Origin: Candidatus Shapirobacteria bacterium | Lineage (GTDB): Bacteria; Patescibacteriota; Microgenomatia; UM-FILTER-40-11 | NCBI GenBank assembly: GCA_020059745.1 | Contig: JAGVBK010000004.1 | Span: 26,932-90,931 of the forward strand | DNA: 64,000 bases | Direction of reading: 5' to 3' | Shown: piece by piece, positions 41,824-63,591 of the stretch | How positions within the stretch are numbered: the first letter of the stretch is position 1 | Layout of the letters: each line of letters begins with the position of its first letter | Made by a program: the position numbers and the translations under genes | The notes under the pieces: model-generated | The model's database searches: none | What the model was told of the DNA's origin: nothing | The model's input: the letters and a program-made list of their open reading frames with translations, nothing else

Positions 41824-41919
41824 AAACACCTCCTTTAAAGGATTGTAACCAAAAGGATAGCTCTAGTCAAAAAAACAGGTAGCCTTAAGGCTACCTGTTA
41901 AAGGAGACAGCAACTTTTT

Positions 41920-42066
41920 TTATTTGTTTTTATTATTGTTGTATTTTCTGCTTCTGGCCAGTCCGCCTTTTCGGCCTGCTTCAGCATGAGCTTTTGGGTT
42001 GCCAAACCAACCTCTGCCCCGGGGTGTTTGATTATCCATCATTTGCACATCGTCTTTATCTGCCAT
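41920..42066 (-). CDS. KGG-repeat stress-induced protein-like (48 aa); shorter than the ORF-track cutoff
   Basis: MADKDDVQMMDNQTPRGRGWFGNPKAHAEAGRKGGLARSRKYNNNKNK; AEAGRKGG matches the YciG/KGG motif. SD GGGGGGTG upstream. Confidence 0.5.
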   Translation of the reverse strand: MADKDDVQMMDNQTPRGRGWFGNPKAHAEAGRKGGLARSRKYNNNKNK

Positions 42067-42232
42067 TTTTATCACCCCCCTTCAAAAATAGATTTTTCAT
42101 TACTAAGCAAAATCTTATTGTGCTTGATTAAGTTAATTGCTAAGGATCAGTAAGAGTTTTGTAAGAAAGATTGAAATCGCCTCAAAAATAGCGTACGATA
42201 GCCATGATTAAAAAAATGGAGGGGTAAAAAAA

Positions 42233-56375: not shown

Positions 56376-57068
56376 CTAAAGAAGATCCCAACCTCTTTTT
56401 AACCTGAAAAGTGCCCGATTGTATTCCGGACTTAAAACAAAATAGCCGTCACTGCTTAAAAGAGCAATTCCGTTCCCCAAAAAAGACCGGGCCATAAAAC
56501 CTTCAGGAGAGCGGTTAACTAAAATTAAGTTTTTACCTATTAAAAAGCCCCCCCTGCCCTGACTCTGGCAAGAAAGAGAATCAACTTTAGCCAGAAAAAA
56601 GCTGGTTTCATCAAAATAGGCTAAAGATAAATGTCCGGAACGCCTTAAACCTTCAATTCCTGAACCTTGCTGGTTTAGATAATCATGAACCTTGGCGTTT
56701 TGATTAAAGGAGTTAATCTTTCCCCACTGCACCGTTACTCCTTCCTCGGAGATGAAATAGTAAGCGGAAACACCCCTTTCCAAACAGAGCTTACCGGTTT
56801 TTTTAGGAGAGTTGTTGTCAAGATGAAAGACCAAAGACTGCCTTTCTGCTGGTTCCAAAGAGAGCCTGCTTAGAACTTTAACCAAGCTGAGGCCTTTTAC
56901 TGTAGGTAACATTCTGCCTTCAATCATTTTTGTACCCACAGAACTTCCGCAATTATTCCAAAACTCAAAATAAATTTCTTTTTCTTTCATATTAACGAAA
57001 AAGCCCCGACTTTTTAGCCGGGGCTCTTGGTTTCTTTTAAAAGACCTTATACCATAACCCCTTCCCAT
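56376..57068 (-). CDS. hypothetical protein
   Basis: ORF only; probable start at the Met MKEKEIYF. Confidence 0.4.
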   Translation of the reverse strand: MGRGYGIRSFKRNQEPRLKSRGFFVNMKEKEIYFEFWNNCGSSVGTKMIEGRMLPTVKGLSLVKVLSRLSLEPAERQSLVFHLDNNSPKKTGKLCLERGVSAYYFISEEGVTVQWGKINSFNQNAKVHDYLNQQGSGIEGLRRSGHLSLAYFDETSFFLAKVDSLSCQSQGRGGFLIGKNLILVNRSPEGFMARSFLGNGIALLSSDGYFVLSPEYNRALFRLKRGWDLL

Positions 57069-57145
57069 TTAAGGGAAATAAGGTTAAGGAGCAAAACTTT
57101 TGTAAACATAGAAGCAATTATATAAAAAAAGCAGAACAGTGGCAA

Positions 57146-57427
57146 TTAAGAAGACTCTTCAATTCTGATCGCCATCCCGTTAACAATGGCTTTGGCTACT
57201 TTGGAATGAGCGCTATCAATCAATCTGGCAAAAGTAGGCTGAGAAATTTTCATCATTCCCGCGGCTTTTGTCTGTTCATTTTCCTCAACATCATAAAGAC
57301 GCAAAGCCTCAAGCTCGTCAGGCTGAAGAACAACCTCATCAAGCAGCCTTAAAGGAATTCCCTGAGGCTTAAAATAATAAACATCAGGTTTAAATCTGAT
57401 GAGCCTTTTAACTCTTGGTCTTGGCAT
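57146..57427 (-). CDS. DUF134 (UPF0251) putative DNA-binding protein
   Basis: 93 aa; sigma70-region-4-like HTH (EQTKAAGMMKISQPTFARLI). Confidence 0.65.
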   Translation of the reverse strand: MPRPRVKRLIRFKPDVYYFKPQGIPLRLLDEVVLQPDELEALRLYDVEENEQTKAAGMMKISQPTFARLIDSAHSKVAKAIVNGMAIRIEESS

Positions 57428-57479
57428 AGCTAATTATAGCAATTAAGGCAAACGGCCCTTATCTTAGGGCCGTTTACTT

Positions 57480-57725
57480 TTATTTGCCCGTCTCTCCTTC
57501 TTCGCTTTTAACATCCTCAAGCTCTTCTTCTAAAGCTTGGCGGTATTCGGAGAGAGCTTTTTTTTGCTCTTCCCTGGTTTGTGGCCAACTCCAGCCAAAG
57601 TATCTGCCCAAACCGCGACCTGCACCAAATCTTCTTCTCCATCCGAGGCCTAAACCGCATGGTCCAAAACCTCTTCCTGTACCTGGTCCTCTTCCAAGAG
57701 GGCCGGATCCGTCAAATCCTGGCAT
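57480..57725 (-). CDS. DUF5320-like Gly/Arg-rich protein with C-terminal acidic coiled coil
   Basis: MPGFDGSGPLGRGPGTGRGFG...EEQKKALSEYRQALEEELEDVK. RBS AGGAGGTG upstream. Confidence 0.55.
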   Translation of the reverse strand: MPGFDGSGPLGRGPGTGRGFGPCGLGLGWRRRFGAGRGLGRYFGWSWPQTREEQKKALSEYRQALEEELEDVKSEEGETGK

Positions 57726-57748
57726 TTTTATTCACCTCCTTAGGAATA

Positions 57749-57772
57749 TATTATGAATATATATTCATAATA
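57749..57772. promoter_or_regulatory. perfect 24-bp palindrome TATTATGAATATATATTCATAATA (candidate operator)
   Basis: Verified base by base. Lies 24-47 bp upstream of the DUF5320 start codon. Confidence 0.6.
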
Positions 57773-57806
57773 CACCCACAGAAATTGATTGTCAAGCTTT
57801 TTTGTT

Positions 57807-58418
57807 TTAAAACAAACGGAAAAGCCAACCAAAAATTCCGGGGTTATCTTCCTCAAAACTGATTCTTTCTTGCAAGGAAGTATTTTCTTGAACCAGTGCT
57901 TTAACCATTTCCTCAACCGTGCTAATTTCAGTCTGATTAACAAGTTTACTCTTCAGCTCTTCAAGCTTTGTTATTCTAACTTGGTTTTGCTCAACTTCCT
58001 GTCTAATATTTCTAATTGCCTTAAAATCAGGACCAATAACAGACCTTAACCAGCCTGGCCGTGTATCCAGCTTTCCTATGTGTTCCCGGATTTCCTCTTG
58101 GGCTTGGTTTTGAGAACGAGCTATTTCACTTACCTCCTCTCCTATCCCACCTTTCGGCGTGCCAGAGGCTAGTATTTCTTGCACTTTTTGGGAAACAATA
58201 TTCATATGTTCTTTTTCAACTCTGCTGTCCAAAAGTCCTTCTTCGTCTTGGGTTCTTACTTGGTTTTGCTCTTCATTTCTAACCTGAGCTCCTGTTACCA
58301 TCGGAGAAATCCTCAGCCTTTGCTGTTCTTGGGTCCTTGCCTCAGTTTGGGCAAGAGCAGTCCTTGCTAAAGTCAAGGAAAAGGCAAAAAGACTGACAAA
58401 CAAAAAAATTTTTCTCAT
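57807..58418 (-). CDS. hypothetical secreted coiled-coil protein
   Basis: Signal peptide; Q/E-rich. Confidence 0.5.
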   Translation of the reverse strand: MRKIFLFVSLFAFSLTLARTALAQTEARTQEQQRLRISPMVTGAQVRNEEQNQVRTQDEEGLLDSRVEKEHMNIVSQKVQEILASGTPKGGIGEEVSEIARSQNQAQEEIREHIGKLDTRPGWLRSVIGPDFKAIRNIRQEVEQNQVRITKLEELKSKLVNQTEISTVEEMVKALVQENTSLQERISFEEDNPGIFGWLFRLF

Positions 58419-63170: not shown

Positions 63171-63509
63171 TTAATTTCTTGCGGCTTCACAGTTTTCTTT
63201 TGTTCCTGGAACCTGACTGTGAAATTTTACAATTGCCTCGCAAGGATAATCCTCACACTGACTGCAGCTTGTTAAGTTTTTTTCTTTGGCACAAAGCCTG
63301 TATGAACACTTAAAGCAGTGCTCATACCAAGGGCCTTCAGAATTACACCCCAAGCAATTTAAGTCTTCGGGGTTAATACCGGGGTGGCTATACTCTTTTT
63401 CCCATTTTCTTGCAGTTTTTTCCCTAAGAGAGTCGTCATCCTTAACCGTTGCTTGATAACAGTCACATTTTGAGCAGTCTAAACCGCAAACGCCAATATT
63501 TTTATTCAT
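63171..63509 (-). CDS. DUF3795-like Cys-rich protein
   Basis: CGLDCSKCDCY...CLGC...CFKC...CSQCEDYPCE; start taken as the internal Met at 63509. Confidence 0.55.
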   Translation of the reverse strand: MNKNIGVCGLDCSKCDCYQATVKDDDSLREKTARKWEKEYSHPGINPEDLNCLGCNSEGPWYEHCFKCSYRLCAKEKNLTSCSQCEDYPCEAIVKFHSQVPGTKENCEAARN

Positions 63510-63591
63510 ATTACTATTATAAACATTAATTTCGTTAATATGCTTTATATTTTTAAAAAGTTTTATAATAATAGAAATGAAAGGAGGAAAA

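Follow-up and report, generated by a model that had tools for sequence, protein, structure and literature searches.

It was found that a perfect 24-bp palindrome is superimposed on the promoter of a two-gene locus of the window, that is, the whole 64-kb stretch of DNA analyzed here. This palindrome is probably the operator of the DUF134 protein encoded by the second gene, and a DUF134 dimer would repress the promoter. The palindrome lies at positions 57749..57772 and consists of TATTATGAATAT followed by ATATTCATAATA (TATTATGAATATATATTCATAATA when written whole). Its halves, 57749-57760 (+) and 57761-57772 (−), are 12 nt each and are exact reverse complements with 0 mismatches. In the whole window, perfect palindromes with arms of 12 nt or longer occur only twice, while 0/100 dinucleotide-preserving shuffles yield any. 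The 24-bp palindrome is more than a chance occurrence, and its perfection, claimed in the original prediction, was confirmed. Both genes are encoded on the minus strand. The first (57480..57725) encodes an 81-aa DUF5320 protein with a Gly/Arg-rich N-terminus and an acidic coiled-coil tail, and the second (57146..57427) encodes the 93-aa DUF134 protein. This gene pair had been described correctly, as the matches to PF17253 and PF02001 show.

A promoter scan found a −35 hexamer TTGACA (57790..57795, minus strand) and a −10 hexamer TATTAT (57767..57772, minus strand) separated by 17 nt, which together match 11/12 consensus positions. Read in the direction of transcription, the palindrome begins with the −10 hexamer: its first six bases are TATTAT, and its left end doubles as the −10 element. 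The palindrome centre is at 57760/57761, and minus-strand transcription is predicted to begin at 57760. The DUF5320 gene is thus predicted to have a strong, near-consensus σ70 promoter on which the palindrome is superimposed. The palindrome is 8 nt from the Shine-Dalgarno sequence AGGAGGTG of the DUF5320 gene (57733..57740, minus strand) and 23 nt from the ATG (57725). The palindrome had been placed "just upstream" of the ribosome-binding site, which holds for the distance; however, the conserved 20-bp element in it is centred on the predicted +1 and is fused to the −10 hexamer.

Is this arrangement common in other CPR/Patescibacteria? I compared about 90 related loci in total. The footprint set comprises 66 loci, namely the window and 65 other CPR/Patescibacteria loci whose DUF134 is 57-72 % identical to that of the window. 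Across these 66 loci, conservation is 94-100 % for the −35 hexamer (at −35 to −30 from the palindrome centre), the −10 hexamer and the core TGAATA-NN-TATTCA, whereas the sequence around them is uninformative. The matrix of the 66 loci defines a 20-bp conserved element (57751-57770) containing the invariant core TGAATATATATTCA (57754-57767). T, A, and T are found at −12, −11, and −10 in 65, 64, and 60 loci, respectively, and T at −7 in 66/66. The A at +10 (63/66 loci) is the mirror of the T at −10. The two central bases of the palindrome vary, and the residue at +1 is a purine in 65/66 loci. In 383 kb, 61 exact cores were observed against 0.25 expected, nearly always one per locus and before the DUF5320 operon. 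One locus (L047) has the order operator, CDF, DUF5320, and DUF134, and two others (L018 and L055) have the order operator, DUF5320, NifX, MinD (then CDF), and DUF134. Thus, the operator stays at the first gene of the operon despite the changed gene order. The original prediction was open to refutation by the absence of the palindrome from orthologous DUF5320/DUF134 loci; 66 such loci carry it, and operator and DUF134 also occur together in DPANN archaea.

The DUF134 protein matches Pfam PF02001 (UPF0251, COG1342) over residues 3-90 of 93 (71.6 bits, cut-off 27, E 8e-20), a family of 2656 clusters at 50 % identity (E ≤ 1e-3). In the AF2 model of the monomer, residues 31-80 have a pLDDT of 90-96, and the highly conserved N-terminal 17-30 residues are of low confidence. 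Foldseek superposed the model on 2h27, 2o8x, and 7bhy at an rmsd of 0.6-0.7 Å and a probability of 1.0, with E-values of only ~1e-2 to 1e-1. The structures matched are σ region 4 bound to −35 DNA and the operator-bound DNA-binding domain of DeoR; the latter domain was also found by a PDB profile search (E 1.7e-4; 38 % identity over 40 residues). As judged from these superpositions, DUF134 has a σ70-region-4-like helix-turn-helix with the recognition helix ISQPTFAR, and this is the sole DNA-binding fold of the conserved DUF5320/DUF134 pair. The closest solved relative by both sequence and fold (rmsd 0.7 Å) is Bacillus subtilis DeoR of the SorC family (PDB 7bhy and 8r7y), which has the same type of helix-turn-helix and binds its operator as an oligomer. 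However, SorC/DeoR members are recognized by a C-terminal sugar-phosphate-binding domain of ~250 aa, while DUF134 has an Arg/Pro-rich N-terminal arm and a C-terminal β-strand in its 93 aa and aligns in the helix-turn-helix alone; membership in this family was rejected. The three-helix geometry is also shared with σ70 region 4/ECF σ4 and the LuxR/GerE helix-turn-helix (Foldseek 0.96-1.0, rmsd 0.6-1.1 Å over 45-49 residues). Unlike these proteins, DUF134 has no σ2, receiver or ligand domain, and its proposed target is a palindrome at +1, not the −35 element. An ECF/σ70 sigma factor was rejected as well, since σ2 is lacking and the matches to TIGR02937 and PF08281 are partial and below the cut-offs. 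The original statement that both families lack an assigned function holds: their Pfam and NCBIfam entries read just DUF or "hypothetical protein", and no functional study of DUF134/UPF0251/COG1342 or DUF5320 was found in the literature searched.

The 20-bp operator also precedes DUF134 genes in DPANN archaea, where a TATA box lies before it and a leaderless ATG after it (L123, L204, L205, and L214). In the archaeal loci and in L155, DUF134 begins 1-2 nt past an operator. I examined the co-variation of the recognition helix and the half-site by sampling protein-first. Helices of the type SQPT(F/L/Y)xR pair with TGAATA..TATTCA in 4/5 loci, the fifth gene being operon-internal. Helices of the type HQST(F/Y)QR pair with TGCATT/AATGCA-type half-sites in 5/5 distinct loci, and HQSTFHR pairs with TGCATA..TATGCA. 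No cross cases were found, and the 80 CPR loci have 0 H-type sites versus 60 exact S-type cores. Thus, S or H at helix position 1 is associated without exception with A or C at half-site position 3. A simple one-residue/one-base recognition code fails at half-site position 6: one locus combines SQSTFQR with TGAATA, whereas under such a code the Q at helix position 6 would require a T. Since different recognition helices of DUF134 go with different half-sites, this co-variation, the strongest evidence obtainable in silico, points to DUF134 as the binder of the palindrome. The H-type version is present in a Methanosarcinaceae MAG, and the methanogens of this family are genetically tractable.

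The DUF5320 protein matches PF17253 over residues 1-74 (E 8e-14, 53 bits, cut-off 27). Its N-terminal motif MP.fD.TGP.G.Gp.TGrG.GpC includes Cys23, and both the motif and Cys23 are conserved in at least 90 % of 64 sequences. In archaea, the conserved N-terminal motif of DUF5320 is fused to DUF134 and a six-cysteine domain. The DUF134-DUF5320(N)-Cys6 type is common, and one DUF134-DUF5320-NifX-like triple fusion was found. Because of these fusions, I propose that DUF5320 is a functional partner of DUF134 and no bystander. The six cysteines of the archaeal fusion are invariant (C-x-C-x2-C-x11-C-x4-C-x2-C) in a domain folded with a pLDDT of ~80. In the AF2 model of the fusion, the Gly/Pro-rich segment is disordered (pLDDT <50), and no docking onto the helix-turn-helix can be deduced from it. 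A scan of viral contigs with the archaeal fusion alignment yielded the Cys-rich module alone and never DUF134. DUF5320 has been listed as a predicted G-quadruplex-binding motif (PMC7565180).

A symmetric site lies over the core promoter of the regulator's own unit and is conserved at the orthologous loci, as in an autoregulated unit. The original claim of a dimeric-repressor operator with DUF134 as a plausible autoregulator thus gains support from the conservation of the palindrome at the orthologous loci and from the co-variation of helix and half-site. I infer binding, the dimer stoichiometry, repression rather than activation, and the nature of the effector, as follows. A DUF134 dimer would bind the 20-bp T(A/T)ATGAATA-NN-TATTCAT(A/T)A element by means of its σ4-like helix-turn-helix (helix ISQPTFAR). 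The element shares its left end with the final four bases of the −10 hexamer and is centred on the predicted transcription start; a dimer bound there would occlude RNA polymerase. When the promoter is free, DUF5320 would be strongly expressed because of its perfect Shine-Dalgarno sequence. DUF134, which lacks one, would be weakly expressed, from transcripts that extend beyond a 12-bp hairpin or from an internal promoter of low strength. The outcome would be a negative autoregulatory loop. Release of the repressor is probably signalled through DUF5320, and the gene neighbourhood suggests that this signal may be the status of a transition metal (Fe/Zn) or of an Fe-S cofactor. This scheme resembles LexA/TetR-type autoregulated helix-turn-helix repressors in the ~20-bp symmetric site over the core promoter of the regulator's unit, in half-sites about one helical turn apart, which implies a dimer, and in the combination of a strong promoter with a poorly translated regulator gene. 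It differs from them in that the first and, as predicted, highly expressed gene encodes a small Gly/Arg-rich partner, and in that the DUF134-operator pair occurs under bacterial (−35/−10) as well as archaeal (TATA) promoters. A possible functional analogy to DUF5320/DUF134 is found in CopY-CopZ, in which the small partner CopZ is co-expressed with the repressor CopY.

It is unlikely that DUF134 acts at this site as an activator or a σ-like factor, or that DUF5320 is the DNA-contacting subunit. The σ70 region 4-like fold, the weak profile matches to σ70_r4_2 and ECF σ, and the Arg/Gly-rich composition of DUF5320, which is typical of nucleic-acid-binding tails, would fit such roles. However, with its centre at +1 and a reach from −10 to +10, a bound dimer would occupy the very DNA that RNA polymerase must melt, and a near-consensus promoter (11/12) needs no activator. 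In addition, the 93-aa DUF134 has no σ2 domain, the archaeal site occupies the stretch from the TATA box to the start, which is a classical repressor position, and the co-variation concerns the helix of DUF134, not DUF5320.

Genes for ZIP, CDF, ABC-3, Fur, FeoA, EncFtn, ArsR, NifX or MinD-FeS are located within 2.5 kb in 38/80 loci, a raw count without a matched background. Archaeal DUF134 loci carry NifX, MinD-FeS, and FeoB. Clusters of a NifX-like (PF02579) gene and a MinD/ParA-ferredoxin ATPase gene are found in anaerobes and archaea, and DUF134, with or without DUF5320, lies directly in front of them in the archaeal and several CPR loci. In contrast, the window's own locus has neither of these genes and no metal gene within 2.5 kb; a ZIP homologue 24 kb away has no operator. 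The effector of DUF134 may be metal- or Fe-S-related, as the gene neighbours of the related loci suggest. With 0 Cys and 1 His, the DUF134 of the window is unlikely, by its sequence, to be a classical metal sensor alone. A broader reading, which is possible but which I regard as doubtful, is that DUF134 and the DUF5320 module form a previously unrecognized class of regulators sensing metal/Fe-S-cofactor status. The DUF5320 module is a separate protein in CPR and is fused to DUF134, along with a Cys6 or NifX-like domain, in DPANN/methanogens; the class would be exchanged between the domains together with its operator, under σ70 and TATA promoters. It would then be among the few widely conserved transcription factors of reduced genomes.

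Could the palindrome be a box of another regulator of the Fur/Zur/PerR family, with the DUF5320-DUF134 operon as just one member of a metal regulon? In favour of this, the palindrome is rich in A and T, and the outer heptads of the classical Fur box, the consensus of which I take to be GATAATGATAATCATTATC, recur in it as ATAATGA/TCATTAT. The palindrome overlaps the −10 hexamer, as Fur boxes often do, Fur-family genes adjoin the operon in 6/80 loci, and metal transporters are frequent neighbours. However, TGA and TCA are 8 nt apart here but only 3 nt apart in the Fur box, which displaces them by half a helical turn, and inspection against GATAATGATAATCATTATC did not reveal the 19-bp box with 7-1-7 or hexamer-repeat geometry. 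Unlike Fur/Zur operons, which are similar in the AT-rich palindrome over the −10 hexamer and in the metal-homeostasis neighbours of related loci, the DUF134 system has no Fur, ArsR, CsoR or DtxR domain, and the DUF134 of the window has no Cys. Moreover, the site is nearly always missing from ZIP, ABC-3, and Fur genes next to the operon; in Bacteria and Archaea alike, it goes with the DUF134/DUF5320 promoter. A Fur-type binder could not explain the co-variation of half-site and DUF134 helix, and this alternative is very improbable.

That the palindrome is a nucleic-acid structure (a hairpin in the 5′-UTR of the mRNA, a terminator for the gene upstream, which ends 35 nt away at 57807, or a cruciform) is scarcely credible: a fully transcribed palindrome would fold at −13.5 kcal/mol (z −3.1), but the conserved −35/−10 elements put the start at the centre so that one arm alone is transcribed, the arms are invariant in 66 loci without compensatory substitutions while the centre varies, the archaeal site is entirely upstream of the leaderless ATG and untranscribed, each arm has one G-C pair and no U-tract follows, and there is no Rfam match at the palindrome. 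With Rfam 15, four tRNAs were the only matches in the window, and nothing was found in seven related loci.

The original prediction of a two-gene operon is correct in that DUF5320 and DUF134 are consecutive on the minus strand; however, a hairpin lies between them, and DUF134 has no Shine-Dalgarno sequence and maybe its own leaderless start. An SD-like motif precedes DUF5320 in 62/66 loci and DUF134 in only 5/53 loci. The intercistronic hairpin (57448..57477, minus strand) is a GC-rich 12-bp stem with a ΔG of −25 kcal/mol (z −5.9), and all intergenic gaps of at least 40 nt (32/32 loci) fold to −12 kcal/mol or lower. Judging from folding, this hairpin may act as a partial terminator or as an attenuator and thereby determine how much DUF134 is made relative to DUF5320. 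An extended −10-like element, TGCTATAAT (57433..57441, minus strand), is located 5 nt before the DUF134 ATG and might, purely as a hypothesis, drive a leaderless DUF134 mRNA from within the unit. A −10-like hexamer 3-10 nt before the DUF134 ATG was found in 11/32 long versus 7/21 short gaps, which is not better than background. The unit is likely to end at a predicted intrinsic terminator (56994..57028, minus strand), a hairpin GAGCCCCGGCU-AAAA-AGUCGGGGCU followed by UUUUU; the fold of 56985-57112 has a ΔG of −44 kcal/mol (z −4.2).

CPR bacteria and DPANN archaea have very few recognizable regulators and are not known to be cultivable alone. The present analysis provides a first functional handle on DUF134 and DUF5320, namely a DNA target, a mode of action, a partner, and an iron/zinc/Fe-S context, all of which are predicted. 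The 93-aa protein and the 20-bp site can be assayed in vitro or, because the promoter is of the σ70-consensus type, in E. coli. The natural S-type (TGAATA) and H-type (TGCATT) variants constitute a built-in specificity swap: if the model is true, changing the helix ISQPTFAR to IHQSTFQR would shift the preference to TTATGCATTATAATGCATAA. The occurrence of one operator under bacterial and archaeal promoters would be an example of a regulatory module transferred between domains.

Does DUF134 have further targets? The palindrome is the sole site with two or fewer mismatches in 64 kb. Thus, DUF134 looks like a single-target local regulator on the present sequence evidence. In the window, the half-site TATTATGAATAT with up to two mismatches has 14 matches versus 6 expected, none of them convincing beyond the palindrome. 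The 14-bp core with up to three mismatches has 36 matches versus 43 expected, and no regulon is visible in the 64 kb. The half-site enrichment considered in the original prediction was thus not seen in the window, which has one site only. A metagenome scan with ATGAATANNTATTCAT revealed no new regulon members; only 19/122 sites flank DUF5320/DUF134, and the remaining 103, from unrelated organisms, are matches by chance. A weak promoter context surrounds three of them, and two of the three are the MNIYS start of a TetR gene. In the 80 loci, secondary sites with one mismatch are not enriched (6 versus ~4.5 expected). A weaker candidate for a secondary site is found upstream of Trx (L037, position 327). 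Only one secondary site has the full −35/−10/operator architecture (L066, position 3641), and it is located upstream of a gene for a 444-aa membrane protein.

The palindrome proposed before the DUF5320 gene was confirmed by sequence reading and a half-site search: the 24 bp at 57749-57772, TATTATGAATAT followed by ATATTCATAATA, are perfectly palindromic. The whole window has just one other perfect palindrome with arms of 12 nt or longer, and 100 dinucleotide-preserving shuffles of the window contain none. A database protein identical to one from the window carries the label Candidatus Microgenomates, which places the organism among the CPR/Patescibacteria bacteria. A promoter scan revealed, on the minus strand, a -35 hexamer TTGACA (57795-57790) and, after 17 nt, a -10 hexamer TATTAT (57772-57767), which match the consensus at 11 of 12 positions; the palindrome opens with the -10 hexamer, and its centre (57761/57760) lies 7 nt past it, at the predicted transcription start. 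A perfect Shine-Dalgarno sequence, AGGAGGTG (57740-57733, minus strand), serves the DUF5320 ORF (81 aa; 57480-57725, minus strand; PF17253, E 8e-14), which is Gly/Arg-rich with an acidic C-terminus and precedes the DUF134 ORF (93 aa; 57146-57427, minus strand; PF02001, E 8e-20), as had been predicted. A 16-bp AT-only palindrome, TTTGTTTTAAAACAAA (57801-57816), overlies the upstream gene's stop codon (57807-57809), with 5 nt between it and the -35 hexamer. The other long perfect palindrome, AACAGGTAGCCTTAAGGCTACCTGTT (41874-41899), with a T-run behind it on the minus strand, is an ordinary intrinsic terminator; it lies after a small KGG-motif stress-protein gene (41920-42075), with a desulforedoxin-like ORF adjoining. 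Two everted degenerate half-sites (two mismatches each) inside a DUF3795 gene (63502-63526) were judged to be due to chance.

Is the operator found with DUF134 in other genomes? A scan with one genome per species gave 80 Patescibacteria loci, whose DUF134 is 57-72% identical to that of the window; DUF5320 lies immediately 5′ of DUF134 in about 63 of them. When the DNA before DUF5320 was aligned, TTGACA-17-TAT(A/T)AT-GAATA-NN-TATTCA(T/A)(T/A)A was found nearly everywhere between unalignable flanks. In a position matrix of 66 loci (the window included), numbered from the palindrome centre, the -35 hexamer occupies −35 to −30 and the -10 hexamer −12 to −7 (T in 65, A in 64, T in 60, A/T, A in 57, and T in 66 of 66). 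The core consists of TGAATA (−7 to −2) and TATTCA (+2 to +7), each position being conserved in 62-66 of 66. Position −1 is variable, and +1 is a purine in 65/66 loci, as expected for the initiating nucleotide. Since the A at +10 (63/66) mirrors the T at −10, which promoter function does not explain, the symmetric element extends from about −10 to +10. Exact cores occur 61 times in 383 kb (0.25 expected from local shuffles), nearly always as one copy per 5-kb locus. Among 13 loci without a site, six are incomplete upstream, and in four more DUF134 is the last gene of a longer operon starting beyond the fetched DNA. Where the gene order has changed, the operator remains at the first gene of the unit: operator→CDF→DUF5320→DUF134 in L047, operator→DUF5320→NifX-like→MinD→CDF→DUF134→EncFtn in L018, and operator→DUF5320→NifX×2→MinD-FeS→DUF134 in L055. 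The co-occurrence of operator and DUF134 across genomes thus holds in this matrix as well as in the archaeal loci described below.

Some loci carry additional elements. Tandem operators 5′ of DUF5320, two 60 bp apart in L129 (2061-2136) and three within 125 bp in L212 (955-1077), suggest that binding in these lineages is cooperative or involves several dimers. In L066 (3641-3654, minus strand), the complete promoter-operator arrangement, TTGACA-17-CATAAT-GGATACGTATTCA, recurs before a gene for a 444-aa membrane-anchored protein without a family match, whose homologues are likewise found beside the operon in L001 and L053; this second operator marks the sole convincing candidate for an additional regulon member. 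Three loci (L028:2135-2245, L032:1822-1930, L055:243-352) carry a structured element, about 110 nt long, between the operator/transcription start and the DUF5320 Shine-Dalgarno sequence, with the common core CGCCTTAG(T/C)AGAT…TGCGGCT, no Rfam match, and compensatory changes in 8 of 23 predicted pairs among only three sequences; this insert may represent a riboswitch-like leader not described before. In L064 (1910-2101) and L071 (1298-1483), a small Cys-rich ORF (61-63 aa, C..C.YCI.PDE; no Pfam match) lies between operator and DUF5320, starting 4-5 nt past the right arm TATTCA.

Which protein recognizes the palindrome? Within the pair, only DUF134 has a DNA-binding fold. Its AF2 core is confident (pLDDT 90-96; β31-34, H36-47, H52-58, H63-83, β86-89), and its 17 N-terminal residues, Arg/Pro-rich, are highly conserved yet disordered in the model. 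Foldseek matched the model to σ70 region 4 on −35 DNA and to the Bacillus subtilis DeoR DNA-binding domain on its operator (rmsd 0.6-0.7 Å; 38% identity to DeoR over 40 residues), and a PDB-sequence profile search also found the latter (E 1.7e-4). The DeoR (SorC) domain is thus the nearest solved structural relative, although DUF134 lacks the SorC effector domain that DeoR has. A σ factor, despite the region 4 match, is rejected because there is no σ2 domain.

I then compared recognition helices with half-sites in loci that were chosen by the helix alone, the contigs being fetched afterwards. The helix SQPT(F/L/Y)xR goes with TGAATA..TATTCA in L204, L205, L212 (three sites), and L214; no site was found in L206 of this class, whose DUF134 gene is operon-internal. 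The helices HQSTFQR and HQSTYQR go with the TGCATT/AATGCA type in L201, L203, L208, L209/L210, and L211, including TTATGCATTATAATGCATAA in L208 and L211 and TTTTGCATTATAATGCAAAA in L201, a Methanosarcinaceae MAG; HQSTFHR goes with TGCATA..TATGCA in L216/L217. H-type palindromes are absent from all 80 CPR loci, in which every helix starting with S is paired with TGAATA, and S-type (TGAATA) sites are absent from the H-class loci. All classes share the same geometry, 20 bp with outer TTATG…CATAA. Inner half-site bases that vary with the recognition helix of the adjacent HTH protein are what one would expect of direct readout. The annotated starts of P0240 (L201:2175) and P0149 (L216:1501) look wrong, lying inside the operator upstream, or downstream; a canonical MVRPR/MPRP start is found 1-2 nt past the palindrome in both loci.

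Such co-variation would not be expected if a Fur-type protein or another third party bound the site. Nor is the site itself a Fur box: it shares the outer heptads, but its TGA and TCA are 8 nt apart, against 3 in the Fur consensus. The palindrome is read as a DNA rather than an RNA element. In bacteria transcription is predicted to start at its centre, so that only one arm would be transcribed; in archaeal loci the site starts about 4-6 nt past the TTTATATA box and, in leaderless examples, ends 1-2 nt before the ATG, and is thus entirely upstream of the transcript. Fully transcribed, the palindrome would form a hairpin of merely −13.5 kcal/mol; its arms are invariant within a class, without co-variation in the 66-locus matrix, and Rfam gave no match. 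The helix/half-site partition is the decisive evidence supporting DUF134 as the putative binder. The original prediction of a palindromic operator with DUF134 as a plausible autoregulator is supported and sharpened.

A DUF134 dimer on +1 would span −10 to +10 of a near-consensus promoter, a repressor position, as would be the archaeal site between the TATA box and the start. DUF134 may thus repress its own unit in an autoregulatory loop, the mechanism of a classical autoregulated HTH repressor with its operator. I infer repression as the sign of regulation, as well as physical binding and a ligand. The unit is built like such a loop: an SD-like motif precedes DUF5320 in 62/66 loci vs DUF134 in only 5/53, all 32 DUF5320-DUF134 gaps of at least 40 nt contain a stable hairpin, and in L155 a second operator directly adjoins the DUF134 ATG. 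In the window, whose DUF134 ATG lacks a Shine-Dalgarno sequence, the gap holds a GC-rich 12-bp hairpin (57448-57477, minus strand; ΔG −25 kcal/mol, z −5.9) and a -10-like element, TGCTATAAT (57441-57433, minus strand), five nucleotides before the ATG; such a hexamer is not enriched before DUF134 across loci. DUF134 may be expressed either through read-through or, if TGCTATAAT acts as a promoter, from a leaderless mRNA. Directly past the DUF134 stop lies a promoter-like TTGCCA-17-TATAAT (57145-57117), followed by a structured stretch of about 120 nt (z −4.2); RNA folding showed that a hairpin with a U-run (56994-57028, minus strand) closes this 3′ region, some 5 nt ahead of the next ORF's likely ATG (56992). 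The segment 56985-57145 could be a 3′-UTR with a terminator or a leader/attenuator for the downstream gene.

CPR DUF5320 proteins combine the motif MP.fD.TGP.G.Gp.TGrG.GpC with an acidic coiled-coil tail behind it; Cys23 is conserved in at least 90% of them, and His is almost absent. An exact-match metagenome scan with ATGAATANNTATTCAT gave 122 sites, 103 by chance and 19 true; the latter include L123 and L136, which encode DUF134 fusions carrying the N-terminal DUF5320 motif and a Cys-rich tail. A protein search with the fusion revealed that Woesearchaeota, Nanoarchaeota, Micrarchaeota, and other archaea commonly encode it, in the order DUF134, DUF5320 motif, and a six-Cys domain (C-x-C-x2-C-x11-C-x4-C-x2-C, all six invariant). 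In the AF2 model the Gly/Pro segment is disordered and the Cys domain is a small folded unit (pLDDT about 80); the fusion P0183 has an added NifX-like domain. Judging from the fused sequences, DUF5320 is likely a signal-transmitting partner of DUF134. The Cys motif replaces the DUF5320 coiled coil in L058 and L063 and recurs at the C-terminus of CDF transporters adjoining DUF134 in several CPR loci (L005, L006, L018). The fusions' Cys-rich module (…RG.PC….CP.C) was also found, without DUF134, in 145 stretches of IMG/VR viral contigs (L219-L298); with these occurrences it behaves as a mobile mini-domain.

Both families lack an assigned function in Pfam and NCBIfam, as originally stated, and no functional paper on either was found; the only paper found to mention both (PMC7565180) lists them among proteins of Methanosarcina mazei predicted to bind G-quadruplexes. 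What would be new for DUF134, a family of 2656 clusters at 50% identity, is a DNA target, an autoregulatory role, and a partner in DUF5320. Also new is that the same operator-regulator pair is common to CPR bacteria and DPANN archaea. The system is an instance of a well-known kind and is immediately testable.

What might the signal be? In a neighbour census (within 2.5 kb, 80 loci; raw locus counts without background control), a YibE/F-like membrane protein (PF07907) was commonest (35 loci), lying directly downstream of DUF134 in 23, where it starts no more than about 20 nt past the DUF134 stop; it was followed by ZIP (19), a thioredoxin-fold membrane protein (18), thioredoxin (11), CDF and ABC-3 permease (7 each), the Fur family and MinD/ParA-ferredoxin ATPase (6 each), EncFtn-like and ArsR (4 each), and FeoA and NifX-like (3 each). 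Archaeal DUF134 loci have NifX-like, MinD-FeS, and FeoB genes. These neighbours point to homeostasis of transition metals or Fe-S cofactors or, alternatively, to thiol redox. In L005 the YibE/F-like protein is apparently fused to, or read through from, DUF134. The 64-kb window has no YibE/F-like protein, its DUF134 has no Cys, and none of the census gene types is near its locus; the neighbours are a secreted coiled-coil protein, a MASE3 histidine kinase, an unassigned ORF, and a methyltransferase. The first of these, encoded upstream of the operon (57807-58418; about 200 aa), has no family match, and its homologues (39% identity) lie near the DUF134 operon in L012, L015, and L058.
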